NCBI GenBank assembly: GCA_965279565.1
Contig: OZ257249.1
Coordinates: 1,040,496 to 1,104,495 of the forward strand
Length of the DNA: 64,000 nucleotides
Source of the DNA: Tagaea sp.
Lineage (GTDB): Bacteria; Pseudomonadota; Alphaproteobacteria; CACIAM-22H2
Direction: 5' to 3'
The notes beneath the pieces were generated by a model that made no database searches, was not told where the DNA came from, and saw only the letters and a list, made by a program, of their open reading frames with translations. The position numbers and the translations under genes were made by a program. Of the stretch, positions 1,141-43,511 are shown piece by piece. The number at the start of each line of letters is the position of its first letter. Positions within the stretch are counted from its first letter, which is position 1.

Positions 1141-1172
1141 GTGCGATCTCTCTCGGTCTCAAGTCTTTTAGG

Positions 1173-1770: not shown

Positions 1771-2031
1771 CCTATTGATGCCCGAGCCAAACCTCGGGAG
1801 TTATGACGGGCGGGAATATACGCTTTTCCGCGCCCGAATCAAGTATTGAAGACACCCGATTAACCTTTTGGATTTCCGGGGCTAAATCGGCCTGCGCGCG
1901 GTCCCCGCAAACGGCCGGCAACGCGCTGCGACAGCCATTGGAAGCCCGTCGGCGCTGGGCTAAGTTCAGACGGAACGGTCGAGTCGCCCGCACGCGTATC
2001 GCGTGCGGTGCCAGATGGATACGCAACGGAC

Positions 2032-20537: not shown

Positions 20538-20988
20538 GCGGCACCCCGCACGCGATAGGGATCGGACACGCCGAGCCGGCGCAGCACGCGCCGTTCGCGC
20601 GCTTCCATGGCGAAGGCGTCCGAGTCGGTCTCGTGGTCGAACCCCAGCAGATGCAGCGTGCCGTGCACGACGAGATGGCGCACATGCGCGTCCAGCTCCT
20701 TGCGCTGCGCATGCGCCTCGCGCGCGCACGTCTCGAAGGCCAGCGCCACGTCGCCGAGCTCGCCGTCGCCCGAACCGGGGAACGACAGCACGTTGGTCGG
20801 CTTGTCCTTGCCCCGGAAGTCGTGGTTGAGCCGGCGCAGCAGCGCGTCGTCGCCCAGCGCGAAGGTGACGGTGCCCGCGGTGCGGGACCCGTCGAGTGCG
20901 GCGCGCGCGCCGCGGCGCACGAGCGCTTCGGCCTGGCGCAGGTTGCGCCGCCAGCGCGGATCGAGGATGTCGATTCGGATGTTCGCGT

Positions 20989-23351: not shown

Positions 23352-24182
23352 TCAAGCTGCCCCGGCCGCGGCCGCCAAGGCGGGTGCCGGCGGCGTCTCG
23401 CGCCCGGCATTGGCCGCCGCCAGCGTCGCGGCGATCGCGCGCTCGCAATGCTGTGCCAGATGCTTGCGCGATCCGGCTTCGGCCAGCGAGGTGGGCGCGT
23501 GGAAGATCACCTCGACGCTGATCCGTCCCAGCCCGATGAACGCCCACAGGTGGGGAAGCAGTTCCATGTCGCCGTACCAGGCCACGGCCGGGCGCAGGGC
23601 GCGGCACAGCGGCATCCCGTCGAGCCGCGTATAGGCGATCGTGACGGGCTGGACCGCGACCGGCGGGCCGCCCTCGGCCGGCTCGGCGGCGGCGAACAGC
23701 GCGCTCTTGAAGCGGCCGGCACGGTTGCCGTCGCCGGTCGTCCCTTCGGCGAACAGCACGATGTTGCCGCCCTCGGCGAGGCGGCGCTGGAGCGCGTCGG
23801 CCTCCTTGCCCACCGCGCGCGCGCGGCGCGCCACGAAGACCGTACGCTGCAGCTTCGCGAGCCAGCCGAAGAACGGCCAGCCGGCGATCTCGGTCTTGGC
23901 GACGAAGCTGACCTCGGCGAGTGCGGAGAAAACGACGATGTCGAGATAGCTGACATGGTTGGAGACGAACAGCGTGGGCGACGCGGATGCGGGCGCCCCG
24001 GTCACGCGGATGTCGAGGCCGAACAGGGAAGCGCAGCGCGCATGGTACCAGCGCGGCAGTGCTCGCGCCGCCGGCAGGCCGAGCGCCACGAACGCCGCCT
24101 GCACCGGCATCAGCGGCACGGTCAGCGCCACGTAGATGCAGGCGCGCAGGAACGCCAGCGCGCTCGACCCGATGCCGCCCAA
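23352..24182 (-). CDS. olsA: PlsC-family lyso-ornithine-lipid O-acyltransferase, OlsA-like.
   Basis: Acyltransferase HX4D motif FVSNHVSYLDIVV and the FAEGTTGDG motif. It sits next to miaB as in rhizobia, directly downstream of an olsB-like gene. Confidence 0.65.
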   Translation of the reverse strand: MGGIGSSALAFLRACIYVALTVPLMPVQAAFVALGLPAARALPRWYHARCASLFGLDIRVTGAPASASPTLFVSNHVSYLDIVVFSALAEVSFVAKTEIAGWPFFGWLAKLQRTVFVARRARAVGKEADALQRRLAEGGNIVLFAEGTTGDGNRAGRFKSALFAAAEPAEGGPPVAVQPVTIAYTRLDGMPLCRALRPAVAWYGDMELLPHLWAFIGLGRISVEVIFHAPTSLAEAGSRKHLAQHCERAIAATLAAANAGRETPPAPALAAAAGAA

Positions 24183-24187: not shown

Positions 24188-25057
24188 CTAGTCCGCGGTC
24201 GGGCCGCCGACCTGGCGGCTATAGTGCTTGAAATACTTGTCCGTCACCGCATCGGTGACGACGAGGATGCACACGTCGATCGTATTGAACTCGTGGTCGA
24301 CGACGGCACCCTCGCCGATGAAGCCGCCCAGACGCAGATAGCCCTTGATCAGCGGCGGCAGCGCCGCCACCACGGTGCGCGCGTCGAACGCCTTGATCGC
24401 GTCCTCGTGGCCGCCCTGGCCCGCCGGCAGCAGATCCATCGCGACATGCCGCTCGGGCAATGCGCGCGCGCGGATCCCTTCCGGCGCCAGATGGTTGTGG
24501 TGGAGATAGGAAAGCGCCGCCGCGTGCTCGGCGGGATCGGTTCCAGGCAGGCTCGCGCAGCCGAACATCAGCTTGATGTCGTGCGCGAAGACGTAGGCCG
24601 CGATCCCCTTCCAGAGCAGCTGCATCGTGGGGCGGTTGCGGTGCTGCTGGTCCACGCAGGAACGGCCGAGCTCGAGAAGCTCGCCCTGCTGCGCCAGCAG
24701 GCGCGAGATGTCGAATTCGGTCGCCGTGTAGAAGCCGTCGTGGCGTTCGGCGACGGAACGGCGCAGCAGGCGGTAGGTGCCGACGATCGATTCTGGCCCC
24801 TCGCCCTTCGCGTGGTCGATCACCAGCAGATGGTCGCAATACGCGTCGAACTTGTCCGCGTCGCGACGCGATTCGCGGGCCGCCTGCGAGGGCTGCGCGC
24901 CCAGCTCGTCGTAGAAGACGCGGTAGCGCAGCGCCTGCGCGGCGTCGATGTCGGCCGCGTCGCGCGCCAGGCGCACTTCGAGATTCCCCGAACGCAGCGC
25001 GTCGCCGAAGCCGAGGAGGTCCTGGGCCTGTGTCTTTGGGAGTGCCTGTGCGGTCAT
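24188..25057 (-). CDS. olsB: GNAT-like (hemolysin-like) N-acyltransferase, OlsB-like; ornithine lipid biosynthesis, first step.
   Basis: 289 aa with the OlsB/lyso-ornithine-lipid family pattern (YRVFYDELGA..FDAYCDHLLVIDH..GTYRLL...MQLLWKGIAAY). Its ATG overlaps the stop of the Fur-family gene as ATGA. Confidence 0.65.
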   Translation of the reverse strand: MTAQALPKTQAQDLLGFGDALRSGNLEVRLARDAADIDAAQALRYRVFYDELGAQPSQAARESRRDADKFDAYCDHLLVIDHAKGEGPESIVGTYRLLRRSVAERHDGFYTATEFDISRLLAQQGELLELGRSCVDQQHRNRPTMQLLWKGIAAYVFAHDIKLMFGCASLPGTDPAEHAAALSYLHHNHLAPEGIRARALPERHVAMDLLPAGQGGHEDAIKAFDARTVVAALPPLIKGYLRLGGFIGEGAVVDHEFNTIDVCILVVTDAVTDKYFKHYSRQVGGPTAD

Positions 25058-25512
25058 TGCGATCGTTCCTTCTTTTCGGGAGGATCGGACTCGCGGGCGC
25101 CAAGCGGAATGCCGAACAGTTCGAGGCGGTGCCCGACGAGCTCGTAACCGAGCCGGCGTGCGACCTCGCGCTGGAGGCGTTCGATTTCTTCGTTGTGGAA
25201 CTCGATCACCGTGCCGCTCTTCACGTCGATAAGGTGATCGTGGTGCTCTTCGGGCGCTTCCTCGTAGCGTGCGCGCCCGTCGCCGAAATCGAGTCGGGCC
25301 AGGATGTTGGCTTCCTCGAACAGCTTGACGGTCCGGTAGACCGTCGCGATCGAAATGCGCGGATCGATCGCCGCGGCGCGGCGATAGACCTGTTCGACGT
25401 CCGGATGGTCCGTCGCTTCCGAAAGGACCCGTGCGATGACGCGGCGCTGGCCGGTCATCTTCAGACCCTTTTCGACGCAAAGCTGTTCGATTCGCTGCGG
25501 CATCGACATCAT
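25054..25512 (-). CDS. Fur-family metalloregulator (Fur/Mur/Irr-like; no C-terminal CxxC).
   Basis: QRIEQLCVEKGLKMTGQRRVIARVL...DHPDVEQVYRRA...SIATVYRTVKLFEEANIL...HHDHLIDVKSGTVIEF is a Fur winged-helix plus HHDH metal site. GGAG lies 5-6 nt before ATGATG at 25512. Confidence 0.8.
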   Translation of the reverse strand: MMSMPQRIEQLCVEKGLKMTGQRRVIARVLSEATDHPDVEQVYRRAAAIDPRISIATVYRTVKLFEEANILARLDFGDGRARYEEAPEEHHDHLIDVKSGTVIEFHNEEIERLQREVARRLGYELVGHRLELFGIPLGARESDPPEKKERSQ

Positions 25513-25675: not shown

Positions 25676-26092
25676 TCAATCGCTGCCGCGGCGGCGCTTG
25701 GACTTCGTGCCGAGACCCAGATCGCGCGCGAGCTGGCTGCGCTTCTTGGCATAGTTAGGCGCAACCATCGGATAGTCCGGCGCCAGACCCCAGCGCTCGC
25801 GATACTGCTCGGGCGACATGTTGTAGGCCGCCTTGAGGTGCCGCTTCAGCATCTTCAGCTTCTTGCCGTCCTCGAGGCAGACGATGAAGTCGTTCGTGAC
25901 CGAACGCTTGATCGGCACGGCGGGCTGCGGCCGCTCGACCGGGGCGGCCGTGGTGCCGACGGTCGACAGCGTCTGGTAGACCTGCCGGATCAGGCCGGGA
26001 AGCTCCTCCGTCGCCAGCGCGTTCTTCGAGACATGGGCCGCGACAATATTCGCGGTCAGTGCCAGAACATCATTGGATTTAAATTCGGACAT
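25676..26092 (-). CDS. mucR: MucR/Ros-family zinc-finger transcriptional regulator.
   Basis: MSEFKSNDVLALTANIVAAHVSKN...IVCLEDGKKLKMLKRHLKAAYNMSPEQYRERWGLAPDYPMVAPNYAKKRS is near-identical in pattern to Ros/MucR. GAGGA sits 8 nt upstream. Confidence 0.85.
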   Translation of the reverse strand: MSEFKSNDVLALTANIVAAHVSKNALATEELPGLIRQVYQTLSTVGTTAAPVERPQPAVPIKRSVTNDFIVCLEDGKKLKMLKRHLKAAYNMSPEQYRERWGLAPDYPMVAPNYAKKRSQLARDLGLGTKSKRRRGSD

Positions 26093-26199
26093 TTTCATGT
26101 TCCTCAACAAATCGGGGCCGGTCCCCTCGGGGAGCACGGTGTATAGGAAGATCACAATTACTCGGCAAGGGCGAATACAGCCGCCCGCCGAAAGAAAAT

Positions 26200-26655
26200 T
26201 TACTTGGTTATATTAGCAGGTATTGCCGACATTGTCAGGGCCGCGACCCGCGCACCGGGTCCGCGCTGGTAATAGTCGGCCCGTCGCCCGACAAGGGCGA
26301 ATCCGAGCCCGGCGTAGAGTGCACGTGCCGCGGGATTGTCCTCGCCGACCTCCAGGAACAGCGCCCGGGCGCGCGGCACGCACGCCGCGATCCCCACGAC
26401 AAGCGCATGGCCGATGCCGAGTCGTCGTGCGCTCGCAAGCACGCCGATGCTGAGCAGCTCCGCCTCGTCCGCGGCGAGCCGGCCGATCGCGAATCCGGCC
26501 GGCTCGCCGTCGGCCAGTGCAAGCAGCGCGAACACGCCGGGCGAACGCAGGACTTCGCCCATCGCGTCGACCGACCAGCCGTCGGCGAAGGTCTCGCGAT
26601 GCAGTACCGACAGCAGCTCGGCATAGGCCCGGTCGACGGGATGGATCTCGATCAT
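26200..26655 (-). CDS. rimI: Ribosomal-protein-alanine N-acetyltransferase (GNAT).
   Basis: 151 aa GNAT with the acetyl-CoA motif RRLGIGHALV. Overlaps tsaB by 4 nt as in the conserved tsaB-rimI pair. Confidence 0.8.
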   Translation of the reverse strand: MIEIHPVDRAYAELLSVLHRETFADGWSVDAMGEVLRSPGVFALLALADGEPAGFAIGRLAADEAELLSIGVLASARRLGIGHALVVGIAACVPRARALFLEVGEDNPAARALYAGLGFALVGRRADYYQRGPGARVAALTMSAIPANITK

Positions 26656-27287
26656 GGCCGCTTGGGTGCGCTCGTCGCCGGCGGATGGATATAGAGCGGC
26701 ACCAGCCGGCCGACGGGTTCGGCCGCCGCGGCAAGGCGCGCGATCGTACGCGCGTCGGGCAGTGCGGGCCCGGCCGCGACGCGTGCCCGCTTGCCCGCCT
26801 TCGCGAGCGCTTCGACGAACGAAGCCGCGCGATCGCCCGCAACGAGGAACGAATCGCCGGCAGGGGCGAAGCCTTCGGGCGGGGCGGCGAACGGCGTCTC
26901 GTCGTCGAGCATCACGAACGCCTCGGCGCGCTTGGAATCGAGCGCGATCAAACTGCGTTCGCCCGCGTGCACCGGCTCGATGTCGCCGGCGACGGCCGCG
27001 AAACTGGTGATCCCGACGAGGGCGGCACCCGTCGCGAGGCCCAGCCCCTGTGCGGCGGCAAGCCCGGCGCGCAGGCCCGTGAAATGGCCCGGCCCCAGCG
27101 TCGTGGCGATCCGTGTCATGTCCTGCGCCGTCAACCCGGCCTCGGCGAGCACGTCGCCGATCATCGGCAGCAGCGCTTCGGCATGGCCGCGCGCCATCTC
27201 GACACGCCGCCAGGCGAGTACTTCGCCGTCGCGGGTCACGCAGGCCGAAACGGCGGCAAAGGCGGTGTCGAAGGCGAGAATTTTCAT
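26652..27287 (-). CDS. tsaB: tRNA threonylcarbamoyladenosine biosynthesis protein TsaB (YeaZ).
   Basis: MKILAFDTAFAAVSACV...LGPGHFTGLRAGLAAAQGL is the TsaB/YeaZ N-terminal signature. Confidence 0.85.
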   Translation of the reverse strand: MKILAFDTAFAAVSACVTRDGEVLAWRRVEMARGHAEALLPMIGDVLAEAGLTAQDMTRIATTLGPGHFTGLRAGLAAAQGLGLATGAALVGITSFAAVAGDIEPVHAGERSLIALDSKRAEAFVMLDDETPFAAPPEGFAPAGDSFLVAGDRAASFVEALAKAGKRARVAAGPALPDARTIARLAAAAEPVGRLVPLYIHPPATSAPKRP

Positions 27288-27301: not shown

Positions 27302-27865
27302 ATGACGCTCGCCGCCATTGCCCCGCCGCAGTACGACGTGACGATCGATCTGCGCTACGCCACGCCGGCCAACTTCACCGGCAAACCCGTCTATGCGCGC
27401 GCCGCCGCGTTCCTGCATCCGGACGGCGCACGCCATCTCGCGCGAGCGATCGAGCTTGCCGCGGCGCTTGGCCTGCGCCTCAAGATCTTCGATGCCTTCC
27501 GCCCGTCCGAGGCGCAGTGGGCGTTGTGGAATTTCCGCCCCGATCCCGATTTCATCGCCGATCCGCGGCGCGGCTCGCCCCATTCGCGCGGCGTGGCGGT
27601 CGATCTCACGCTGGTCGACGCGGCCAGCGGCGAGGAGCTGGAGATGGGCACCGAGTTCGACGCCTTCACCGAGCTTTCGTATCACGGCAGCACCGAGGTC
27701 AGCGTCGAAGCGCAGCGCAACCGGCACATGCTGCTCGGGCTGATGTCGGCGGCCGGCTGGGATTTCTACAGGCGCGAATGGTGGCACTATCAGCTCTTCG
27801 AATCGAGGCGCTATCCGGTGCTGTCCGACAGCGTGCTGTCGCCGGGCATGATGGGTGCCGCCTGA
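27302..27865 (+). CDS. ddpX: D-alanyl-D-alanine dipeptidase (VanX/DdpX, peptidase M15D).
   Basis: DLRYATPANFTG..LKIFDAFRP...SPHSRGVAVDLTLVD...EMGTEFDAFTE..WWHYQL is the VanX zinc-peptidase signature. Confidence 0.8.
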   Translation: MTLAAIAPPQYDVTIDLRYATPANFTGKPVYARAAAFLHPDGARHLARAIELAAALGLRLKIFDAFRPSEAQWALWNFRPDPDFIADPRRGSPHSRGVAVDLTLVDAASGEELEMGTEFDAFTELSYHGSTEVSVEAQRNRHMLLGLMSAAGWDFYRREWWHYQLFESRRYPVLSDSVLSPGMMGAA

Positions 27866-27903
27866 CGAAGGCGCGGCCGGAGCGCGAATCGGGAGACGCA
27901 AGC

Positions 27904-29127
27904 TTGACCCGCCTTGCCGTAATCGTCAAAGGCTGGCCCCGCCTGTCCGAGACCTTCATCGCCCAGGAGCTGGTCGGGCTCGAGGCGCGGGGTCTCGAAC
28001 TCGAGCTGTGGTCGCTGCGCCACCCGACCGACACGCGCCGGCATGCGCTCGCCGGCTCGCTGAAGGCCAGGGTCAACTACCTGCCCGAATATCTGTGGCG
28101 CGAGCCGGCCCGTGCGCTCGCGGGCTGGGTGCAGGCACGCCGCCTGCCCGGCTACGCCGCCGCACTTGCCACGTTCCTTTCCGACTGGCGGCGCGATCCC
28201 ACGCCCAACCGCGGCCGGCGTTTCGGACAGGCCTGCGTGCTCGCGGCCGAGATGGGGCCGGAAACCGCGCATCTCTACGCGCACTTCATCCATACGCCGG
28301 GCTCGGTCGCGCGCTACGCCGCGATCATGCGCGGGCTGGGCTGGTCGGCCTCGGCGCATGCCAAGGACATCTGGACCACGCCCGACTGGGAGAAGCGCGA
28401 AAAGCTCGCCGCGATGCATTGGTGCACGACCTGCACAAAGGCGGGCTTCGAACATCTCGAAACGCTCGGGCCCGGCAAGACGCGGCTCGTCTATCACGGG
28501 CTCGATTTCGCGCGCTGGCCCGACCCGCCGGCCCGCGCCGGAAAGGACCCGAATGCGCCCGTCGTCATCGTGTCGGTCGGCCGGCTCGTCGCGAAGAAGG
28601 GCTATGACGACACGATCGCGGCCCTTGCACGCATCGGCACCGCGCGCGCCTGGCGCTTCGTGCATGTCGGCGGCGGCCCCTTGAAAGCGCAGCTTCAGGC
28701 GCAGGCGGCGGCCGCCGGCATTGCCGACCGGATCGAATGGCGCGGGGCGCGCGACCAGGCCGACGTGCTGTCGGCCCTGCGCGAAGCCGACCTGTTCGTG
28801 CTGGCAAGCCGGATCGCCGCCGACGGCGACCGCGACGGGCTGCCCAACGTGCTGATGGAAGCGGCGAGCCAGGGCCTCGCCCTCGTCGCCACCGACGTCG
28901 CCGCGATCCCCGAACTGGTCGGGCCGGAAAGCGGCGTGCTGGTCCCGCCCGGCGACGTGGCGGCGCTTGCCGCGGCGATCGAAGGACTGCTTGGCGATCC
29001 GGATCGCCGCGCGACGCTGGGTGCGGCGGCCAACGCGCGCGTCCGGCGCGACTTTCCCTTCGCGCGCGGATTGGAGACGCTGTACGACTTGCTGCACGCA
29101 TGCGTATCGCCGCCTATGCACCGCTGA
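27904..29127 (+). CDS. Glycosyltransferase family 4 (retaining GT-B), TTG start.
   Basis: The C-terminal GT4 motif region reads VGRLVAKKGYDD...ASRIAADGDRDGLPNVLMEAASQGLALVATDVAAIPELV. GGGAG lies 8 nt before the in-frame TTG. Confidence 0.75.
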   Translation: MTRLAVIVKGWPRLSETFIAQELVGLEARGLELELWSLRHPTDTRRHALAGSLKARVNYLPEYLWREPARALAGWVQARRLPGYAAALATFLSDWRRDPTPNRGRRFGQACVLAAEMGPETAHLYAHFIHTPGSVARYAAIMRGLGWSASAHAKDIWTTPDWEKREKLAAMHWCTTCTKAGFEHLETLGPGKTRLVYHGLDFARWPDPPARAGKDPNAPVVIVSVGRLVAKKGYDDTIAALARIGTARAWRFVHVGGGPLKAQLQAQAAAAGIADRIEWRGARDQADVLSALREADLFVLASRIAADGDRDGLPNVLMEAASQGLALVATDVAAIPELVGPESGVLVPPGDVAALAAAIEGLLGDPDRRATLGAAANARVRRDFPFARGLETLYDLLHACVSPPMHR

Positions 29128-30230
29128 AGCCGCCCGACCATCCGGTGCCGTCCGGCGACCGGCGTGTGGCGCGGCTGCTCGACCAGGCCCTGAAACTCGC
29201 CGGGCACGAGGTCGAATGGGCCGGCCGGCTGCGCAGCCGCGACGCGACGGGCGATCCGGCGCGTCAGGCGCGGCTCGCGAGGATCGGCGGCTATCTTGCC
29301 GCGCGCCTGATCCGGCGCTGGAAAGCCGGGCCGTCGCATCTGCGCCCCGATCTCTGGTTCACCTATCACCTCTATTACAAGGCGCCCGACCATCTCGGGC
29401 CGCCGGTCGCCAGGGCGCTCGGCATTCCCTATGTGGCGGTCGAGGCGTCGGTCGCGATGAAGCGCGCCGGCGGACCGTGGGATGCCGGCCATCGCGCCGT
29501 GCTCTCAGCACTGGCGCAGGCCGCTGCAATCGTCTCGCTCAATCCCGGCGACGTGCCGGCACTCGCACCGCATCTCGCGCATGGCACGAAACAACTCGTG
29601 CTGCCGCCGTTCCTCGATTCCAGGCCCTACGCTTCGGCCGCCGCGAACCGCGACATGCATCGCGACGCCTGGGCGCGGCGCCTGAAATTCGATCCGTCGC
29701 GACCGCTGCTGCTCGCCGTCGGCATGCACCGGCCGGGCGACAAGCTGCGTTCCTATGCCGTGCTGGCCGAAGCTTTGGGCCGCATCGCGGCACGCGACTG
29801 GCAGCTCATGATCGTCGGCGACGGACCGGCGCGGTCCGACGTGGAGGCAGCCTTCGCGTCCCTGCGCGCACGCGTCGCGTTCGCGGGCCAGCTCGACGAG
29901 GAATCGCTTGCCGGCCTGATGGCCGCGTCCGACATTTTCGCGTGGCCGGCGATCAACGAGGCCTACGGCATGGCGATCCTCGAAGCGCAGGCGAGCGGCC
30001 TGCCCGTCGTCGCCGGGCGCGGACCCGGCGTGGCCGCGATCGTCGCCGACGGCATCACGGGTACGCTTGTTCCGCCCGGCGATGCGGCGGCGTTCGCCCA
30101 AGCGCTCTCGTCGCTGCTCGACGATCCCGACCGTCGCGCCGCGTTCGGCCGGCAGGCGGCCGTGAAGGTCGCCGCGTCGCACGGCCTGGCCGGGGCCGCC
30201 GCGCAGCTCGACAAGGCGATCGCGCGATGA
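29100..30230 (+). CDS. Glycosyltransferase family 4, second copy.
   Basis: MRIAAYAPLKPPDHPVPSGD...LAVGMHRPGDKLRSY...INEAYGMAILEAQASGLPVVAGRGPGVAAIV is the GT4 EX7E-type pattern. It overlaps the upstream GT4 by 28 nt. Confidence 0.75.
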   Translation: MRIAAYAPLKPPDHPVPSGDRRVARLLDQALKLAGHEVEWAGRLRSRDATGDPARQARLARIGGYLAARLIRRWKAGPSHLRPDLWFTYHLYYKAPDHLGPPVARALGIPYVAVEASVAMKRAGGPWDAGHRAVLSALAQAAAIVSLNPGDVPALAPHLAHGTKQLVLPPFLDSRPYASAAANRDMHRDAWARRLKFDPSRPLLLAVGMHRPGDKLRSYAVLAEALGRIAARDWQLMIVGDGPARSDVEAAFASLRARVAFAGQLDEESLAGLMAASDIFAWPAINEAYGMAILEAQASGLPVVAGRGPGVAAIVADGITGTLVPPGDAAAFAQALSSLLDDPDRRAAFGRQAAVKVAASHGLAGAAAQLDKAIAR

Positions 30231-30829
30231 CGACCCATATCGCCTTCATGCGCCACGGGCCGACCGCATGGAACGGTGCAAAGCGCCTGCAGGGCCGCGC
30301 CGACATCGAGCTCACGCCGCGCACGCTCACGTTCCTCAAAGAACGCCGGCTGCCGCGCGAGTTCGCCGACTGGCGCGTGCTGTGCTCGCCCTTGCAGCGC
30401 TGCCGGCAGACGGCCGAGGCGCTCGGCCTTGCCGGCGAGATCGATCCGCGCCTTGTCGAGATGGACTGGGGTGCATTCGAGGGGCGCACGGTCGAGCAGC
30501 TGCGCATCGAACAGGGCGACGCGTTCGCGATGAACGAATCGCGCGGGCTCGACTTCACGCCGCCGCGCGGGGAATCGCCGCGAATGGTGCAGGCGCGCGT
30601 TGCCCCGCTGCTGGCCGAGATCGCCGCCGCCGGCCGCGACACGCTGTGCGTGACGCATCGCGGCGTGTTCCGCGCCGTCTACGCCGCCGCGCGCGGCTGG
30701 GACATGACGGGCGATTCGCCCGACAAGCTCGATCTCTACGCGCTGCACGTCTTCACGCTGGCACCCGACGGCACGCCGTCGGTCGACAAGCTCAATCTCG
30801 CGCTGAAGCGGCGATGGCGAAAATCCTGA
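30227..30829 (+). CDS. Histidine-phosphatase (phosphoglycerate-mutase) family protein.
   Basis: MTTHIAFMRHGPTAWN..RLQGRADIELT...LCVTHRGVFRAV carries the RHG catalytic-His motif of His_Phos_1. ATGA overlap with the upstream GT4 stop. Confidence 0.75.
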   Translation: MTTHIAFMRHGPTAWNGAKRLQGRADIELTPRTLTFLKERRLPREFADWRVLCSPLQRCRQTAEALGLAGEIDPRLVEMDWGAFEGRTVEQLRIEQGDAFAMNESRGLDFTPPRGESPRMVQARVAPLLAEIAAAGRDTLCVTHRGVFRAVYAAARGWDMTGDSPDKLDLYALHVFTLAPDGTPSVDKLNLALKRRWRKS

Positions 30830-31893
30830 TCCACGTCCAGCACCTGCTCGGCACCGGCCATGCGCGACGCATGGCCGCGATCGCGGCGGCGTGCGCGAAG
30901 CACGGTCACGATGTCGTGCTCGCAAGCGGCGGCATGAAGCTTGGTCTCGCGACCGGTGCCGCGAAGCTCGTGCAGCTTCCGGCGATGCGCGCGATCGACG
31001 CGACCTTCGCCACGCTCGTGGATGCGCAAGGACGCGCGGTCGACGATGCGTGGCGCACGGCGCGGCACGACGCCACGCTGGCGCTGTTCGACTCGTTCCG
31101 CCCCGACCTGCTGGTCGTCGAGCTCTATCCGTTCGGCCGTTCGATGCTGCGCTTCGAGCTTGAACCGCTGCTGGAACGCGCGCGGCGCATTCCGCGCCTG
31201 TGTTCGGTGCGCGACGTGCTGCAGCGGCCCGACGGATCGAAGGCCGCCGCGCGCGTGGAATCCGCGAAGCGCTTCAACGGCGTGCTCGTGCATGGCGATG
31301 CGAAGCTGCTCGCTTTGCCCGACAGCTGGCCCGAATGTGCCGATCTCGGCGAACGGCTGCATTACACCGGCTACGTGCCGGGCGATCCGGGCGTGACGGC
31401 GAACTCACGCGATGAGATTGTCGTGTCGGTCGGCGGCGGGGCGGCAGGCGCGAAGCTCGTTGCGGCAGCACGCGCCCTTGCCGCGCGCCGCGCGCATGCG
31501 GGCGAACGCTGGCGCATCCGGACCGGCGAAGATGCGCCTGCGCTCGCAGCACCCAATCCCCATGTCGTCGTCGAGCCCAACAGGCGCGATTTCCCCGACC
31601 TGCTGGCACATGCCCGCCTGTCGGTGAGCCAGGCCGGCTACAATACGTGTGTGGACCTGCTGCGCGCGGGCTGCCGGGCCGTCCTCGTTCCGTTCGCCGA
31701 AGCACGCGAGCGCGAGCAGACGATCCGCGCCGCCGCATTCGCGCGGCACGGCTGGGCGTCGGTCTGCGCCGAGGCCGACCTGTCGGCCGACACGCTCGGT
31801 GCCGCGATCGACGCCGCACCGGTGCCGCCGGCCCATCGGATCGCTTGCGATGGAGCCGTGCAAACGGCCAAACTCCTGACAAGATGGCTATGA
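30814..31893 (+). CDS. Glycosyltransferase, GT28/MurG-like C-terminal domain (COG4671-type predicted GT).
   Basis: MAKILIHVQHLLGTGHARRMAAIAAACAKHGHDVVL, plus a C-terminal half with GT-B nucleotide-binding features (LSVSQAGYNTCVDLLRAGCRAVLVPF). Confidence 0.6.
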   Translation: MAKILIHVQHLLGTGHARRMAAIAAACAKHGHDVVLASGGMKLGLATGAAKLVQLPAMRAIDATFATLVDAQGRAVDDAWRTARHDATLALFDSFRPDLLVVELYPFGRSMLRFELEPLLERARRIPRLCSVRDVLQRPDGSKAAARVESAKRFNGVLVHGDAKLLALPDSWPECADLGERLHYTGYVPGDPGVTANSRDEIVVSVGGGAAGAKLVAAARALAARRAHAGERWRIRTGEDAPALAAPNPHVVVEPNRRDFPDLLAHARLSVSQAGYNTCVDLLRAGCRAVLVPFAEAREREQTIRAAAFARHGWASVCAEADLSADTLGAAIDAAPVPPAHRIACDGAVQTAKLLTRWL

Positions 31894-32651
31894 TCCCGCC
31901 CCCGGCCGACTGGGCCGACCTCGACCGCACCCTCGACGCGTATGCCGCCGCCGGCAAGACGGCGACCTGGTGGTGGCGCGACGACGACGCCACGCATCCT
32001 ACGCCCGCACTCGACAGGCTGCTCGCGCTTGCCCCCGACGTGCCGCTCGTGCTGGCCGTGATCCCGGCGCGCGCGCAGCCCGAGCTCGCCGAACGGCTGA
32101 AGACGGCACCGGCCGCGCGCGTCTGCCTGCATGGCTGGAACCACTGGAACCATGCACCGCTCGGCGAGCCGAAGGCCGAGCTGGGCGCCCACCGGCCGAC
32201 TTCCTACGTGCTGGGCGAGCTCGCGCGCGGCTGGATGCGGCTCACGCAGATCTTCCCCAACGCGATGACGCTGCTCGTCCCGCCGCACAATCGCGTGGCG
32301 CCTTCGGTCGCCGCCGGCCTGCGTGGTGCGGGCATTCGCGCATTGTCGACTTACGGTGCGCGCAAGAACGTGCCGGCCGGTATTGCGCAGACGAACACGC
32401 ATACCGACATCATGGACTGGGGGACGCGCGCCTTCATCGGCGAGGGGCCCGCACTCGGCGCGCTCGTAGCACATTTCAAGGCGCGCCTTGCGGGCACGGC
32501 CGATCCCGGGGAAGCGACGGGCGTTCTCAGCCATCATCTTGCACACGACGAGGGTGCGTGGCGCTTCCTCGCCACGCTGATCGCGCAGCTGAAGGCGCAT
32601 CGCGCGACACGGGTGCTCGACCCGCGCGACATTTTCGCCGCTTCGGCATGA
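31884..32651 (+). CDS. Polysaccharide deacetylase-like (CE4/NodB-homology) protein.
   Basis: WWWRDDDATHP fits the Asp-Asp metal motif and CLHGWNHWNH the His-x-x-x-x-His motif. ATGA overlap with the upstream GT stop. Assignment from short motifs only. Confidence 0.45.
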   Translation: MAMIPPPADWADLDRTLDAYAAAGKTATWWWRDDDATHPTPALDRLLALAPDVPLVLAVIPARAQPELAERLKTAPAARVCLHGWNHWNHAPLGEPKAELGAHRPTSYVLGELARGWMRLTQIFPNAMTLLVPPHNRVAPSVAAGLRGAGIRALSTYGARKNVPAGIAQTNTHTDIMDWGTRAFIGEGPALGALVAHFKARLAGTADPGEATGVLSHHLAHDEGAWRFLATLIAQLKAHRATRVLDPRDIFAASA

Positions 32652-33139
32652 ACCGGCTTTCCTATCCCGTGCGCGCGACATACGGCGACTACGCGCGCGC
32701 GGCCGTCGGCCTCCTGTTCACGCTGGGTCCGGCACTGGCGATCGGGCAGTGGAGCTACGCCCACTGGCTGCTGCTGCCTCTTGCCGGCCTGTTCGGCGTA
32801 TTCGCGTTCCGCACTTGGCGGCGCGGCCGAACCGTCATCGAATGGGACGATACGGGTCTATCGATTTCGGGCGGCGGGCGGGCTAGTCTGCCGTGGTCGG
32901 AGCTGGTTTCGCTCAAGCTCGCGTTCTACGCGACGGGGCGCGACCGCACGGGGGGCTGGATGCAACTGACGCTACGCGGCAACGGCGCGAAAGTGCTCGC
33001 GGATTCGGGTGCGGAGAATTTCCCCGCCTTCGCCGCGCGCTGTGCGGCGGCGGCCCAGGCGAAGAACCTGACGCTCGACACCGCGACGCGCGCCAATTTC
33101 GCCTCGCTCGGCATCCGGCTTGCCGGGGACGCGGCATGA
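32648..33139 (+). CDS. Small hypothetical membrane protein (163 aa).
   Basis: Two hydrophobic segments (AAVGLLFTLGPALAIGQW; LLLPLAGLFGVFAF). It is ATGA-coupled to genes on both sides. Confidence 0.45.
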   Translation: MNRLSYPVRATYGDYARAAVGLLFTLGPALAIGQWSYAHWLLLPLAGLFGVFAFRTWRRGRTVIEWDDTGLSISGGGRASLPWSELVSLKLAFYATGRDRTGGWMQLTLRGNGAKVLADSGAENFPAFAARCAAAAQAKNLTLDTATRANFASLGIRLAGDAA

Positions 33140-35058
33140 ACCTTCTCGAAGTCCGCGACCTGGCGATCGATTTCCGCGTGCACAACACGCACGTGAAAGC
33201 GGTCGACGGCGTGGACTTCCGCGTGCGGCCCGGCACGACGGTCGCCATCGTCGGCGAATCGGGTTCGGGCAAGACTGTCATCAGCCAGTCCGCACTCGGC
33301 ATCCTGCCCAAGGTCGGGCGCATCAGCCGCGGCTCGATGCTTTTCCGCGACCGGGGCAACGAGATCGATCTCGCGAAGCTCGATCCGGACGGGGCGGAAT
33401 TCCGCAAGCTGCGTGGCGGGCGCATCTCGATCATCTTCCAGGAACCGATGACGTCGCTGTCGCCGCTGCACACGGTCGGCGACCAGATTTCGGAAGCCGT
33501 GCGCCTGCACCAGTCGGACGACCCGAAGCTCGCACTCGAGCTGGCCGAGGACATGCTGCGTCGCGTGGGTTTCCCCAATCCGGCGAAGGCGCTGGTCACG
33601 TATCCGTTCGAGCTTTCGGGCGGCCTGCGCCAGCGCGCGATGATCGCAATGGCGCTGGTGTGCCGGCCGGCCCTGCTGATCGCCGACGAGCCGACCACCG
33701 CCCTCGACGTGACGATCCAGGCGCAGATCCTTAAGCTGCTGAAGGACCTGCAGCAGGATCTCGGCATGGCCATCCTGCTGATCACGCACGATCTGGGCGT
33801 CGTCGCCAACATGGCCGACGAGGTCGTCGTCATGTATCGCGGCCGCGTGATGGAATCGGGCATGCGCGAGGACATCTTCCGCCGGCCCGAGCATCCCTAT
33901 CTGAAGGCGCTGCTGCACGCGGTCCCGCGCTTCGACATGGCGCCGGGCGAGAAGCTCGTCCCGCTGCGCGAGATCAAGTCCGACATCGGCTCGATGATGC
34001 GCAAGGGGACCGGCGAGGCCAACGCGCGCGTCGCGAACAAGGGCCCCGCCCCCGGTGCTATCGACCGGCGGGCACCCGTGCTGTCGGTGCGCAACCTGCG
34101 CAAGTCCTACACGATCCGCAAGTCGGGCTTCCTGGGTGCGGGCAAGCCGCAGTCGGTGCTGGCGGTCGACGACATCAGCTTCGACGTGTTCCGCGGCGAA
34201 TGCCTCGGCCTTGTCGGCGAATCGGGCTGCGGCAAGACGACCGTGTCGAAGATGGTCATGCGCGCGCTGACGCCGGATTCCGGCAAGGTCGTGTTCGAGG
34301 GGCGCGACGTCCACACGCTGGAAGGCGACGACCTGTTCGAGTACCGCCGCCAGGTCCAGTTCGTGTTCCAGGACCCGTTCGGCTCGCTCAATCCGCGCAT
34401 GACGGTGTTCGACATCGTCTCCGAGCCGCTGGTCATCCACGCGATCGGCGACGCCGCCTCGCGCCGCGCCACGGTCAGCGAGCTGATGCGCGTCGTCGGG
34501 CTCGACGACCGCGCGCTCAACCGCTATCCGCACTCGTTCTCCGGCGGGCAGCGCCAGCGCATCGGCATCGCGCGGGCGCTGGCCCTCGGGCCCGAGATGC
34601 TGCTGCTCGACGAACCGGTCTCCGCCCTCGACGTGTCGATCCAGGCGCAGGTGCTGAACCTGCTCAAGGACCTCAAGAAGGCGCTCGGCCTCACCTACGT
34701 GTTCGTCAGCCACAATCTCGCGGTCGTCGACTACATGGCCGACCGCATCGCGGTGATGTGCGCGGGCCGGCTGGTCGAGGTCGCGCCGCGCGCCGCCCTC
34801 TTCAAGGCGCCGATCCATCCCTATACGCAGGCCCTGCTCGCGGCCGTGCCCGAGCCGGACATCGACCGGCCGCTCGACCTGACGGCACTGATGGAGGGCC
34901 GCGCCTCGATCCCGTCCGCCTGGCCCGCCCCCTTCACGATCGACGAGGCGGCCGATGTCGGCTTCATCGATCTGGGCCAGGGACATTTCGTGCGCGCCGC
35001 CATCGGCACGTCGCCTTCCACATTGCGTGCCTGCGCACGCCCGCGGGAGCTCGCATGA
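33136..35058 (+). CDS. yejF: ABC transporter ATP-binding protein with duplicated ATPase cassettes (YejF/DppDF-like).
   Basis: Two Walker A sites (GESGSGKT; GESGCGKT) and two LSGGxxQR signatures (LSGGLRQR; FSGGQRQR). Confidence 0.85.
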   Translation: MNLLEVRDLAIDFRVHNTHVKAVDGVDFRVRPGTTVAIVGESGSGKTVISQSALGILPKVGRISRGSMLFRDRGNEIDLAKLDPDGAEFRKLRGGRISIIFQEPMTSLSPLHTVGDQISEAVRLHQSDDPKLALELAEDMLRRVGFPNPAKALVTYPFELSGGLRQRAMIAMALVCRPALLIADEPTTALDVTIQAQILKLLKDLQQDLGMAILLITHDLGVVANMADEVVVMYRGRVMESGMREDIFRRPEHPYLKALLHAVPRFDMAPGEKLVPLREIKSDIGSMMRKGTGEANARVANKGPAPGAIDRRAPVLSVRNLRKSYTIRKSGFLGAGKPQSVLAVDDISFDVFRGECLGLVGESGCGKTTVSKMVMRALTPDSGKVVFEGRDVHTLEGDDLFEYRRQVQFVFQDPFGSLNPRMTVFDIVSEPLVIHAIGDAASRRATVSELMRVVGLDDRALNRYPHSFSGGQRQRIGIARALALGPEMLLLDEPVSALDVSIQAQVLNLLKDLKKALGLTYVFVSHNLAVVDYMADRIAVMCAGRLVEVAPRAALFKAPIHPYTQALLAAVPEPDIDRPLDLTALMEGRASIPSAWPAPFTIDEAADVGFIDLGQGHFVRAAIGTSPSTLRACARPRELA

Positions 35059-36989
35059 TCCGTCCGGTCCGCCTCTTCGCCGCCGCCCTCATCGCCTGCG
35101 TTTCGGCATCGGCGTTCGCGGCACCCTACCGGGAAACGCCGTGGATGGCCGACGACGTCGCCGCCGGCCGCTTCCCGCCGGTGGAAAAACGCCTGCCGGC
35201 GGTTCCGCTGGTGATCGCGCCCACGCGCGCGGACTGGGTGCCGGGCCGGCACGGCGGCGAGCTGCGCATGCTGTCGGGCCGCGCGCAGGACGTGCGGCTG
35301 ATGTCGGTCTACGGCTATGCGCGTCTCGTCGGCTTCGACGCCGACCTCAAGCTGCGCGCCGACATCCTCGAAGCGGTCGAGAACGAAGGCGACCGCGTCT
35401 TCACGATGCGCCTGCGCGAGGGCCATCGCTGGTCCGACGGAAAGCCGTTTACGTCCGAGGATTTCCGCTACTACTGGGAGGACGTCGCGAACAGCAAGGA
35501 ACTGTCGCCCGGCGGACCGCCCAAGGCGCTGCTGGTCGACGGCAAGCCGCCGCGCGTGAGCTTTCCCGACGCGCGCACGGTGCGCTATGCGTGGGACGGG
35601 CCGAACCCCGGCTTCCTGCCGGCGATCGCGGGGCCCGCCCCGCTCGTGATCTACCGTCCGTCGCACTACATGAAGGGCTTCCACGCGCGCTATGCCGAGC
35701 GCGAGGTGCTGGTGCAGGCCGCCCGGCGCGCCAACGCGCGCAACTGGGCCCAGCTCCACAACCGGCTCGACAATCTCAACCGCAACGACAATCCGGACCT
35801 GCCCACGCTCGACCCGTGGGTCGTGCGCACGCGCGCCCCGTCCGAGCGCTTCGTGTTCGAGCGCAACCCCTATTACCACCGCGTCGACATCGAGGGCCGC
35901 CAGCTTCCCTATATCGACCGCGTCATCATGAACGTGGCCGACGGCAAGATCCTGTCGGCCAAGACCGGCTCGGGCGAGGCCGACCTGCAGGCGCGCGGCC
36001 TGACCTTCGCGAACTACACGTTCCTGCGCCAGGCCGGCAAGCGCAACGAGTTCGAGACCGTGCTGTGGGACACGGCCAAGGGCGCGCAGATCGCCCTCTA
36101 TCCCAATCTCAACGTCAACGATCCGGAATGGCGGGCACTGATGCGCGACCTGCGCTTCCGGCGTGCGCTGTCGCTCGCGATCGACCGCAAGGAAGTGAAC
36201 CAGGTCGTCTATTTCGGGCTCGCGATCGAGGGTGCGAACACCGTGCTGCCCGGCAGCCCGATCTACGACGCGAAGTACCGCAGTGCTTGGCACCGGCTCG
36301 ACCTGCGCGAGGCAAACCGGCTGCTCGACGAGATCGGCCTGACGAAGCGCGATTCGCGCGGCGTGCGCCTGATGCAAGACGGCCGCCCGCTCGAGATCGT
36401 CGTCGAGACCGCGGGCGAGGACGTCGAGCAGGTCGACGTGCTGGAGCTGGTGCACGATTCGTGGATGCGGGCGGGCGTGAAGCTCTATTCGCGCCCGCAG
36501 CAGCGCGAGATCTTCCGCAACCGCATCTTCGCGGGCGAGACGAAGATGAGCGTGTGGTTCGGTCTGGAAAACGCCGTCGCCACGCCCGACTTCTCGCCCG
36601 AGGAACTCGCCCCGGTTTCCCAGCAGGGCCTGCAATGGCCCAAATGGGGTCAGCACTACGAGACGGGCGGCAAGTCCGGCGAGCCGATCGACATGGCGGC
36701 AGCCAAGGAACTGATGGCGCTCAACGACGCCTGGCGCACCACGGCGGGTGCGGCCGCCCGCGCCGAGATCTGGCGCAAGATGCTGGCGATCCACGCCGAC
36801 AACGTGTTCTCGATCGGCATCGTCGCGAACGTGCGCCAGCCGGTCGTCATCTCCAGGCGCCTGCGCAACGTCCCGCGCCAGGGCGTGTGGAACTGGGACC
36901 CGGGCGCCTTCTTCGGCATCCACAACATGGATGCGTTCTGGTTCGACGAGCAGCCGCAGCCGCGCACGGCTGCCGCACCTCAGCGCTGA
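35055..36989 (+). CDS. yejA: ABC transporter periplasmic substrate-binding protein, SBP family 5 (YejA-like oligopeptide/muropeptide binder).
   Basis: Signal peptide MIRPVRLFAAALIACVSASAFA. A roughly 620 aa mature SBP_bac_5 protein (LRMLSGRAQDVRLMSVYGYARLVGFD..). Confidence 0.85.
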   Translation: MIRPVRLFAAALIACVSASAFAAPYRETPWMADDVAAGRFPPVEKRLPAVPLVIAPTRADWVPGRHGGELRMLSGRAQDVRLMSVYGYARLVGFDADLKLRADILEAVENEGDRVFTMRLREGHRWSDGKPFTSEDFRYYWEDVANSKELSPGGPPKALLVDGKPPRVSFPDARTVRYAWDGPNPGFLPAIAGPAPLVIYRPSHYMKGFHARYAEREVLVQAARRANARNWAQLHNRLDNLNRNDNPDLPTLDPWVVRTRAPSERFVFERNPYYHRVDIEGRQLPYIDRVIMNVADGKILSAKTGSGEADLQARGLTFANYTFLRQAGKRNEFETVLWDTAKGAQIALYPNLNVNDPEWRALMRDLRFRRALSLAIDRKEVNQVVYFGLAIEGANTVLPGSPIYDAKYRSAWHRLDLREANRLLDEIGLTKRDSRGVRLMQDGRPLEIVVETAGEDVEQVDVLELVHDSWMRAGVKLYSRPQQREIFRNRIFAGETKMSVWFGLENAVATPDFSPEELAPVSQQGLQWPKWGQHYETGGKSGEPIDMAAAKELMALNDAWRTTAGAAARAEIWRKMLAIHADNVFSIGIVANVRQPVVISRRLRNVPRQGVWNWDPGAFFGIHNMDAFWFDEQPQPRTAAAPQR

Positions 36990-37012
36990 CGGCGACGGAG
37001 ACCGGCAAGAGC

Positions 37013-38011
37013 ATGTTCGCCTATCTCGTCCGCCGACTTCTCGTGATGGTGCCCACGCTGCTGGCGATCAGCGCGATCGTCTTCACGATCATCCAGCTTC
37101 CGCCGGGCGACTACCTGTCGACCCTGATCGCCGAGCTGCAGTCGCAGGGCGAAGCTGCGAATCTGGAGCGCATCGAGTTCCTGCGCCAGCAATACGGGCT
37201 CGACCGCTCGCCGGTCGAACAGTATTTCCACTGGCTGTTCGGGATGCTGCACGGCGATCTCGGCTGGTCGTTCGAGTACAACCTGCCCGTCGCGCACGTG
37301 ATCGGCGACCGGCTGGTGCTGTCGTTCCTCGTCGCGTTCGTGACCGTGATCTTCACCTATGCGGTCGCGTTCCCCATCGGCATCTATTCGGCCACGCACC
37401 AGTATTCGTGGGGCGACTACGGGCTGACGCTGCTCGGCTTCCTCGGCCTCGCCACGCCGTCGTTCCTGCTCGCGCTCGTGATGCTCTATCTCGCGAACAT
37501 CTGGTTCGGCACGTCGATCGGCGGGCTGATGGACCCCGAGTTCGTCGACCAGCCGATGAGCTGGGGCAAGTTCGCGTCGGTGCTCGAGCATCTGTGGATC
37601 CCGGTCATCGTGATCGGCACGTCGGGCACGGCCGCGATGATCCGCCGCCTGCGCGCCAACCTGCTCGACGAGCTGCAGAAGCAGTACGTGACGACCGCGC
37701 GCGCCAAGGGCCTGCCGCCGCGCCGCGCACTGCTCAAGTACCCGCTGCGCATGTCGCTCAACCCCTTCATCTCCGACATCGGCGACCTGCTGCCGCACAT
37801 GATCTCGGGGGCCGCCATCGTGTCGGTCGTCATGTCGCTGCCGACGAACGGGCCGATGCTGCTGTCGGCCCTGCGCAGCCAGGACATGTACCTCGCCGGC
37901 TCGTTCCTGATGATCGAGGCGGTGCTGATCGTCGTCGGCGTGTTCCTGTCGGATCTGGCGCTGGCAGCCCTCGATCCGCGCATCCGGCTGCATGGCGGGG
38001 CGACGAAATGA
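37013..38011 (+). CDS. yejB: ABC transporter permease (YejB/DppB-like).
   Basis: BPD_transp_1 EAA-like motif VTTARAKGLPPRRALLKYPLR, six TM segments. Confidence 0.85.
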   Translation: MFAYLVRRLLVMVPTLLAISAIVFTIIQLPPGDYLSTLIAELQSQGEAANLERIEFLRQQYGLDRSPVEQYFHWLFGMLHGDLGWSFEYNLPVAHVIGDRLVLSFLVAFVTVIFTYAVAFPIGIYSATHQYSWGDYGLTLLGFLGLATPSFLLALVMLYLANIWFGTSIGGLMDPEFVDQPMSWGKFASVLEHLWIPVIVIGTSGTAAMIRRLRANLLDELQKQYVTTARAKGLPPRRALLKYPLRMSLNPFISDIGDLLPHMISGAAIVSVVMSLPTNGPMLLSALRSQDMYLAGSFLMIEAVLIVVGVFLSDLALAALDPRIRLHGGATK

Positions 38012-42464: not shown

Positions 42465-42604
42465 TTTGACCCTCGTTTTGCCAAGTTTGGATTTACCGCA
42501 GCAAGCCGTGTTCCAAGTAACCGGCGAATCGGCACCGAGGGTGATATTTACAACCGCTGTAACATGGATTTTTGATGGTGTTGCCGTACGGTAACATATT
42601 TGCG

Positions 42605-43474: not shown

Positions 43475-43511
43475 GTTCGCTTCCGCCTTGTTCGGGCCCC
43501 AATTCTGCGGC

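Follow-up and report, generated by a model that had tools for sequence, protein, structure and literature searches.

Positions 30227–32651 of the 64,000-nucleotide stretch of Tagaea sp. DNA analyzed here (from contig OZ257249.1; hereafter the window) hold three plus-strand genes, encoding a histidine phosphatase, a glycosyltransferase of the GT28/COG4671 type and a CE4-like protein, and raise the question of which pathway would have a phosphatase and a deacetylase beside its glycosyltransferases. A preliminary description of the locus had taken the pair for steps on a phosphorylated, N-acetylated glycoside intermediate. Both genes are as real as it held, the phosphatase matching PF00300 (E 6e-37) and the CE4-like protein giving a confident CE4-fold model. 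On balance, the two products are probably tailoring enzymes of the Rhodospirillales version of an alphaproteobacterial envelope-glycan system, of the type attributed in Sinorhizobium meliloti to smb21252–smb21271 and a phazolicin-protecting polysaccharide (PPP).

The window has ~69% G+C, so raw lists of open reading frames are mostly noise; genes were called by third-position GC frame analysis and inspection of start codons, and products were identified by Pfam and NCBIfam searches of the window proteins. The GC frame analysis gave an uninterrupted series of 11 consecutive plus-strand genes at 27302–39180, in the order ddpX, two GT4 glycosyltransferase genes (GT4a and GT4b), the phosphatase gene, the GT28-like gene, the CE4-like gene, a gene for a 163-residue protein and a four-gene peptide-type ABC importer. 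Because four-base overlaps of start and stop are found at most junctions (30227/30230, 32648/32651, 33136/33139, 35055/35058 and 38008/38011), the series is read as one translationally coupled 11-gene operon. The glycosyltransferases, the phosphatase and the CE4-like protein are predicted to be cytoplasmic, having no signal peptide; the binding protein of the importer carries one. The phosphatase and deacetylase had been described as embedded between glycosyltransferases, which holds upstream, where the two GT4 genes lie, and between the two genes themselves, where the third transferase lies; there is no glycosyltransferase gene downstream. The importer, a metallo-β-lactamase (MBL)-fold gene and a methyltransferase gene, which also accompany these genes, had been missed.

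By sequence, the 255-residue product of 31884–32651 (plus strand; a start at 31890 is possible) is a deacetylase only marginally. Its match to PF01522 lies below the gathering cutoff (E 0.0088; 16.4 bits against 23.1), NCBIfam gave no match, and searches of PDB sequences with the single protein and with a family profile gave only chance matches to a hormone receptor. A profile comparison with Escherichia coli ArnD showed no similarity, and no signal peptide was found. Within an alignment of 46 homologs, 31 members touch PF01522 at E < 1 (best 1e-5) and 12 touch DUF2334 weakly (best E 0.013). The AlphaFold2 model made with this alignment has a mean pLDDT of 91.8 and a pTM of 0.89, and Foldseek returned 45 PDB matches at E <= 1e-3, the CE4 enzymes at E ~1e-6. 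Nearly all the listed matches are CE4/NodB-type or related deacetylases (TM-scores of 0.55–0.65), including 3rxz, 2cc0, PdaC, PgdA, chitin deacetylases, ArnD and the YdjC-type ChbG, and the protein is accordingly modeled as a NodB-type distorted β/α barrel; an assignment first made from short motifs is thus upheld by the predicted structure. The residues invariant in the 46 sequences are RDDDA (32–36), H83 and H87 (HGWNH), VPPHNR (132–137), D175 and W179 (DIMDW) and HLAHD (218–222), of which D33–D35, H83, H87 and H218-L-A-H221-D222 are at or near predicted strand ends and are candidates for the Asp-His-His metal triad and the catalytic Asp and His of motifs 1, 2 and 5. Compared by eye with the CE4 consensus, the invariant segments resemble the CE4 motifs; DIMDW (175–179) fits motif 4, and motif 3 reads VPPHNR rather than RxPY. 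The family defines a divergent CE4 subfamily missed by present Pfam and NCBIfam models; relatives are encoded in at least 484 of the species-level genomes scanned (one per species), and the protein database holds thousands of homologs.

The phosphatase (30227–30829, plus strand; 200 residues, cytoplasmic) scores 127.6 bits with PF00300, where the cutoff is 21.7. In an alignment with the solved alpha-ribazole phosphatase, R9-H10-G11 fall on the RHG motif, R57/R59 on the paired arginines, the EMDWGAFEG segment on the glutamate-containing stretch and H153 on the second histidine; the protein belongs to branch 1 of the histidine phosphatase superfamily, and its catalytic core is intact. Neither a signal peptide nor a membrane segment is predicted. 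Its score with the CobC equivalog TIGR03162 (101.9 bits) is below the cutoff of 162.9, and cob genes are missing from the annotated neighbors, both here and in those related loci that were examined. Mycobacterial GpgP (PDB 4pz9), of the same superfamily, matches it with E 6e-8; a BLASTP comparison with E. coli Ais showed no similarity.

Both GT4 proteins, GT4a (27904–29127) and GT4b (29100–30230), match PF00534 and PF13692 with E ~1e-29 to 1e-31 (GT4b and PF13692, E 5e-31). GT4a is similar over its full length to EpsE/WcaL-type GT4 enzymes, below the NCBIfam cutoffs, and is 51% identical to the product of pSymB 838380–839591 in S. meliloti, which is SMb21265 (redB). GT4b carries an E-x7-E motif (EAYGMAILE) and is 40–42% identical to the deacetylase-adjacent GT4 of Sinorhizobium, Rhizobium, Mesorhizobium and Pararhizobium; its ortholog in S. 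meliloti 1021 lies at pSymB 822580–823677, exactly the coordinates of SMb21252. The GT28-like protein (30814–31893; GT-B, 359 residues) matches PF04101 with E 5e-11, has weak similarity to MurG and is 37% identical to the product of pSymB 839621–840736, the COG4671 protein SMb21266. With the CE4-like protein as the ortholog of SMb21253, the window thus holds clustered orthologs of SMb21252, SMb21253, redB and SMb21266 at 37–51% identity, which places it with the PPP clusters, and the tblastn map of pSymB agrees gene for gene with the published coordinates.

These S. meliloti genes have published phenotypes. In a transposon-sequencing experiment with phazolicin, a peptide antibiotic, nine genes were strongly depleted, with log2 fold changes of ~-3.5 to -5.4: SMb21252, SMb21253, SMb21256, SMb21259, redA/SMb21264, redB/SMb21265, SMb21266, SMb21269 and SMb21271 (Travin et al. 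2023; PMC10128002). SMb21253 is annotated there as a polysaccharide deacetylase family protein (log2 fold change -3.5 to -3.8 under phazolicin), SMb21256 as a nucleotide-sugar dehydrogenase, SMb21269 as an ABC exporter, redA and SMb21266 as COG4671 proteins and redB as a GT4; insertion mutants of smb21252 and smb21265 had an 8-fold lower minimum inhibitory concentration of phazolicin, and the authors proposed an uncharacterized envelope polysaccharide, PPP (PMC10128002). The same authors state that Agrobacterium orthologs were hits of a pyocyanin-sensitivity screen and that several of the genes matter in symbiosis (PMC10128002); the protective phenotype is known from S. meliloti only, with a report for A. 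tumefaciens. Predation by Myxococcus induces seven of the nine PPP genes (PMC10315480). A Clr/cAMP transcriptome paper was set aside, as it concerns the adjacent nodP2-smb21248 cluster and not the PPP cluster.

The two versions share GT4b (40% identity), the CE4-like protein (40%), GT4a (51%), the GT28-type transferase (37%), the four importer genes (49–66%), an MBL-fold gene (43–45%) and the clustering itself. Of the two, only the window has the histidine phosphatase, the 163-residue membrane protein and DdpX, whereas the window has no redA, SMb21269, SMb21256, SMb21259, adenylate cyclase or DUF3095 gene, and the sugar composition of the two products therefore likely differs. SMb21259 (pSymB 829812–830792; 19813–20793 of locus L087), in which PF14099 was confirmed, is a secreted polysaccharide lyase without a homolog elsewhere among the loci examined, the window included. 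Its gene, needed for phazolicin tolerance, lies directly upstream of the importer genes of that cluster.

Gene order was compared in the best 80 of at least 484 species-level genomes, down to ~45% identity and mostly from Rhodospirillales; since they stand closest to the query, the counts apply to this branch of the family. The closest relatives (85–92% identity) are metagenome-assembled genomes labeled Rhodospirillales and Tagaea. GT4a lies within 10 kb of the CE4-like gene in 66/66 loci and GT4b in 65/66, the GT28-like gene is directly upstream of it in 51/66, the 163-residue gene directly after it in 57/64 and the importer ATPase directly downstream in 61/64. Outside the clade of the window, most loci add a second COG4671/GT28-type transferase, an ABC exporter, a small cyclic nucleotide monophosphate (cNMP)-binding protein and a Methyltransf_17 gene; the exporter stands beside the cluster in 41 loci, the cNMP-binding protein in 35 and the second transferase in ~50. 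The exporter is divergent and MsbA/HepA/NdvA-like. It is also unusually long (~880–905 residues; 1096–3732, minus strand, of locus L084 and 40 other loci), and its nucleotide-binding domain matches in two separated stretches, at residues ~368–500 and ~720–870. Its gene is always followed by that of the small cNMP-binding protein, which is similar to cyclic-nucleotide proteins of the "bacteriocin-type transport-associated" kind.

Versions of the gene set are found in Rhodospirillales, Rhizobiales and Rhodobacterales, also with the genes in another order. A plasmid of Azospirillum sp. B510 carries a second, paralogous copy in the order exporter, importer, second transferase, GT4a, GT4b, phosphatase, GT28-like, deacetylase; rearranged sets are likewise found in Mesorhizobium, Pararhizobium, Tritonibacter (with the phosphatase) and on pSymB of S. 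meliloti, the cluster of A. brasilense is split, and that of Rhizobium leguminosarum is reduced, within the +/-10 kb examined, to a cyclase, GT4b, the deacetylase and the MBL-fold gene. That the same components return in varying order strongly supports a single functional system over an inherited gene order, and the recurring core of this system is GT4b with the CE4-like protein, usually accompanied by the MBL-fold gene. In A. brasilense BR 11650, a PAS-GGDEF gene (326 residues, WP_145682756; 1738–2718 of locus L038) sits between the orthologs of GT4a and GT4b; cyclic di-GMP often controls the production of surface polysaccharides. The copy on plasmid pAB510d of Azospirillum sp. B510 is followed, at 12839–13499 of locus L083, by genes for an AbrB/MazE antitoxin and a death-on-curing-family toxin.

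Within this set the phosphatase has a fixed place. In 43 of 58 contiguous loci its gene separates GT4b from the GT28-like gene; the remaining 15 have no phosphatase there, and only 24–175 bases part the two transferase genes. Wherever the phosphatase gene is present it directly follows GT4b, the smb21252-type GT4, and it stays with GT4b in the split A. brasilense cluster, on the rearranged Azospirillum sp. B510 plasmid and in Tritonibacter. A stray cobC or phosphoglycerate mutase (PGM)-family paralog, the possibility named in the preliminary description as fatal to its proposal, does not fit such a distribution. The phosphatase is an accessory step positionally tied to GT4b, which hints that the acceptor or primer is phosphorylated wherever the phosphatase is present. 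The order of events proposed earlier, from glycosyltransferase to phosphatase to deacetylase, survives as a sub-module, but about a quarter of the contiguous loci and the Rhizobiales versions examined have no phosphatase. In the latter, conserved proteins of 199–225 residues without a Pfam match adjoin the transferases (15082–15756 of locus L089; 16990–17589 and 17628–18305 of L090; 30778–31413 of L087), and these could be functional replacements for the phosphatase.

The same tie between GT4b and the phosphatase speaks for a small soluble glycoside, in which a GT4 enzyme would make a phosphorylated N-acetyl-hexosaminyl glycoside that the phosphatase and deacetylase mature to a cytosolic osmolyte, a thiol-cofactor precursor or a similar compound, with the importer taking leaked product back in, much like the uptake systems for glucosylglycerol and ectoine. 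Synthase followed by phosphatase is the layout of the sucrose-phosphate, glucosyl-3-phosphoglycerate and trehalose-phosphate pathways, and the phosphatase gene directly after a glycosyltransferase gene is what the locus has in common with sucrose-phosphate synthase/phosphatase, GpgS/GpgP and MshA/MshA2. The closest solved structures to GT4b, covering its C-terminal half only, are PimB', MshA, 6kih, PimA and BshA; MshA and 6kih, which we take to be a sucrose-phosphate synthase, use phosphorylated acceptors. All the enzymes are predicted to be soluble and cytoplasmic, a mechanosensitive-channel gene adjoins the cluster in Sinorhizobium and Mesorhizobium, and the window has no exporter gene. The equivalog scores, however, are far from those of such pathways: 77 bits against a cutoff of 462 for MshA, 72 against 274 for BshA and, for sucrose-phosphate synthase, a score far below cutoff. 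By Pfam and NCBIfam the operon transferases are all GT4 or GT28-like, with no GT81 or GT20 synthase among them, so that the window has no GT81 synthase adjoining the phosphatase as in the glucosylglycerate pathway. Nor does the cluster resemble mycothiol or bacillithiol synthesis, as it has no MshA or BshA equivalog, no LmbE-type deacetylase (the CE4 fold being a different one), no cysteine ligase and no acetyltransferase gene. None of the pathways named as models in the preliminary description is thus matched by the locus. Unlike synthase-phosphatase pairs, the system dispenses with its phosphatase in many versions and is built for export, with three to four glycosyltransferases and methyltransferases exceeding the needs of a compatible solute, a binding protein of the large-cleft type and, in most lineages, a dedicated ABC exporter that S. 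meliloti requires for its phenotype. That phenotype is a permeability-barrier defect toward a peptide antibiotic and not an osmotic one; the orthologs and the MsbA/NdvA-like exporter are needed for phazolicin tolerance, read as the work of an envelope polysaccharide (PMC10128002), and the osmolyte or thiol cofactor suggested earlier loses ground accordingly. A small soluble glycoside is thus an improbable product, if somewhat less so for an exporter-less locus such as the one in the window.

The exporter and the barrier phenotype would also suit a decoration of the lipopolysaccharide (LPS) core or of lipid A. On this account, the GT4 and GT28-type enzymes add core sugars on the cytoplasmic face, the CE4-like enzyme converts N-acetylglucosamine (GlcNAc) to glucosamine (GlcN), the phosphatase trims a core phosphate and the MsbA-like exporter flips the product. 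A GT4 with a cytoplasmic deacetylase is a known core-LPS motif, Klebsiella WabH/WabN converting GlcNAc to GlcN in the LPS core, and the window pairs its enzymes likewise; the best score of the neighboring exporter is with MsbA, and an LPS change would explain sensitivity to both phazolicin and pyocyanin. The preliminary description had set LPS loci aside as lacking PGM-family phosphatases, which is mistaken, as ais of E. coli K-12 adjoins arnBCADTEF with its CE4-like ArnD. There, as in the window, a histidine phosphatase, a CE4-like de-acylase and glycosyltransferases share one envelope-remodeling locus. The arn locus serves aminoarabinose modification of lipid A and antimicrobial-peptide tolerance; ArnD is a deformylase whose substrate is a lipid-linked amino sugar, ArnT belongs to the GT-C enzymes and Ais acts on the LPS core. 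In sequence, no similarity of the window proteins to ArnD or Ais was detected. The usual LPS genes are missing from the annotated window neighbors, and no lpx, kdt, waa or O-antigen ligase genes are found in the window or in the related loci. The paralogous copy on an accessory plasmid of Azospirillum sp. B510, and the presence of importer and cyclic-nucleotide genes, which have no role in core assembly, argue in the same direction, and we regard an LPS function as quite unlikely.

The importer is the part of the operon that biosynthesis accounts for least well. It consists of a fused double ATPase of the peptide/opine (PepT family) type with two ABC_tran and oligo_HPY domains (33136–35058), a periplasmic binding protein of family 5 and the large cluster-C type with a signal peptide (35055–36989; PF00496, E 3.5e-52), permease 1 with BPD_transp_1 and its N-terminal domain (37013–38011) and the Opp4C/OppC-like permease 2 (38008–39180), all on the plus strand. 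The ATPase is GsiA/YejF-like, below equivalog cutoffs, and 56% identical to the copy in the S. meliloti cluster; the permeases are each 66% identical to theirs. The closest solved structures to the binding protein are the pectin-binding SPH1118 and Thermotoga OppA 5ipw (E ~4e-73), which have very large clefts (PMC9314435). Closeness to large-cleft proteins, one of them pectin-binding, makes retrieval of glycan fragments or import of a precursor plausible. At the head of the operon, the product of 27302–27865 (plus strand) is a DdpX-type D-Ala-D-Ala dipeptidase (NF007557, 245 bits against a cutoff of 176; Peptidase_M15, E 3e-36), ddpX being upstream of the cluster in 13 Tagaea-like loci only; in comparison with the ddpXABCDF D,D-dipeptide uptake operon of E. 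coli, the importer falls short of the D,D-dipeptide permease equivalog (146 bits against 434).

An uptake or recycling system would give these genes a leading role: N-acetylated oligosaccharides or fragments of the cell wall would enter through the importer, the CE4-like enzyme would deacetylate them as ChbG does chitobiose, the GT4 enzymes would act as phosphorylases, and the phosphatase and DdpX would finish the breakdown. Translational coupling ties the importer to the enzymes, and almost every version of the cluster has it; ddpX is the first gene of the operon in this lineage, Foldseek places ChbG among its best matches, the relatives of the binding protein bind oligosaccharides, and an Agrobacterium ABC transporter is reported to recycle muropeptides (PMC9790009). 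Yet genes for a glycoside hydrolase, a sugar kinase or an enzyme of the NagA/NagB type are missing, the presence of four GT-B transferases and an exporter indicates synthesis, DdpX is restricted to 13 closely related loci, and the S. meliloti glycosyltransferase and exporter mutants show a barrier phenotype. Breakdown of imported material is on these grounds very improbable as the function of the cluster.

Most likely, the cluster instead assembles, in the cytoplasm, an envelope glycan or glycolipid that is partly de-N-acetylated and then exported. The pairing of GT4b with the deacetylase, kept even in the reduced Rhizobium versions, fits transfer of an N-acetyl-hexosamine followed by de-N-acetylation, and MshA/MshB, BshA/BshB and PIG-A/PIG-L follow the same pattern with GlcNAc. 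In Pseudomonas aeruginosa, gpgSDF joins a GT4 and a cytoplasmic deacetylase in making the amino-sugar lipid glucosaminyl-phosphatidylglycerol (PMC12713373). It is a precedent for the logic of the window cluster, with a GlcNAc-adding GT4 followed by an adjacently encoded cytoplasmic de-N-acetylase. The window differs in having no UPF0104 flippase and two to three further glycosyltransferases, and GT4b scores 55.7 bits with the GpgS model NF053787, far below its cutoff of 480. DUF2334 is presumably the family of GpgD (from its COG3233 assignment in the gpgSDF paper); the window deacetylase is neither of the LmbE/PIG-L type nor clearly of DUF2334.

In the mechanism proposed for the envelope glycan, GT4b would use a nucleotide sugar to add an N-acetyl-hexosamine to an acceptor or primer, which would be phosphorylated in the lineages with the phosphatase. 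The histidine phosphatase would strip the phosphate after this step, and the cytoplasmic CE4-like enzyme would take off the N-acetyl group, leaving a free amine. The redB-type GT4a and the COG4671/GT28-type transferase would lengthen the glycan, the MsbA/NdvA-like ABC exporter that adjoins the cluster in most lineages and is not in the window would export it, and the product would add to the permeability barrier of the envelope. The peptide-type importer would probably retrieve product fragments or supply a precursor, which is the weakest step. For the window we infer all of these steps, the established part being the gene identities, folds, operon structure and conservation of the gene set and, from the literature, the S. 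meliloti phenotype.

Several points weigh against a PPP-type glycan. The phosphatase is missing from 15 of the 58 contiguous loci and from all Rhizobiales versions examined, so it is not essential to the core chemistry. The arginine of motif 3 in the CE4-like protein is off its canonical position, and only its fold and motifs predict deacetylase activity. Neither the 64-kb window nor any of the 13 closest loci has the exporter or the second transferase of the COG4671 type, so the product here could differ or stay intracellular; both genes may lie elsewhere in this genome. Since the cluster has no initiating phosphoglycosyl transferase, Wzx/Wzy or outer-membrane export protein, the "polysaccharide" may be an oligosaccharide or glycolipid. 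The proposal does not account well for an importer within a biosynthetic operon, and the S. meliloti importer genes are not labeled as PPP genes in the portion of the published data set that is accessible. Finally, PPP itself was deduced from phenotypes, and its product has never been isolated from any organism.

The remaining gene of the operon (32648–33139, plus strand) encodes the 163-residue protein, which has two hydrophobic N-terminal segments, overlaps both neighbors by 4 bases and has no Pfam or NCBIfam match. Convergent with the operon on the minus strand are genes for a class I S-adenosylmethionine-dependent methyltransferase (39181–40005; Methyltransf_24, PF13578, E 2e-13), an MBL-fold, phosphodiesterase-like hydrolase (40002–40835; PF12706, E 5e-20) and an OmpR-type transcription regulator with Trans_reg_C and a degenerate receiver domain (40832–41497). 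The MBL-fold protein has weak full-length similarity to cyclic-nucleotide-degrading phosphodiesterase and to RNase Z, and its homolog stands beside the cluster in 44 loci, including those of Rhizobium and Sinorhizobium (42–43% identity); homologs of the methyltransferase do so in 32 loci and of the regulator in 27. In the related loci these three genes occupy the flank opposite to the exporter. Pfam finds no receiver domain in the window regulator, whose NCBIfam alignments span its whole length, and finds one in the homolog of loci L084–L086. After the regulator gene, at 41586–43513 (minus strand), follow genes for a Gcw_chp-family protein and a hormone-sensitive-lipase-type esterase, with homologs beside the cluster in 15 and 11 loci, respectively.

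Upstream, a tsaB-like gene (26652–27287, minus strand) is divergent from ddpX, with start codons 14 bases apart. The promoter of each must therefore overlap the coding region of its neighbor, unless transcription of ddpX begins at a more distant point upstream. Some 2 kb before the operon, genes for an Acetyltransf_5/FeeM-type N-acyltransferase (24188–25057, minus strand) and an acyltransferase (23352–24182, minus strand) have the layout expected for ornithine-lipid synthesis (OlsB/OlsA), and fur (25054–25512) and a Ros/MucR regulator gene (25676–26155) adjoin this putative pair. Scans for tRNA genes and for Rfam families at the gathering threshold found none in the whole 64 kb.

Read together, the parts allow a more far-reaching proposal, which we put forward tentatively and consider unlikely: a self-contained cycle that makes, exports and retrieves a cationic, glucosamine-bearing envelope oligosaccharide or glycolipid. 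It would comprise cytoplasmic assembly with the phosphatase and deacetylase setting the charge, MsbA/NdvA-like export under a co-encoded cyclic-nucleotide module (a cyclase or GGDEF enzyme, the small cNMP-binding protein and the MBL-fold phosphodiesterase), and recapture or sensing of released fragments by the large-cleft peptide-type importer. If true, Alphaproteobacteria would have in such a cycle a kind of envelope homeostasis system not described before.

The locus adds lineage-specific genes to an envelope-glycan system that is recognized genetically and uncharacterized chemically. The cluster is very widespread in Alphaproteobacteria, and its S. meliloti copy matters for tolerance to a rhizobial peptide antibiotic. 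For the product, the analysis predicts a de-N-acetylated amino sugar; for the smb21252-type GT4 of Rhodospirillales and Rhodobacterales, a phosphorylated intermediate; and for the system as a whole, a tie to a dedicated importer and to cyclic-nucleotide signaling.

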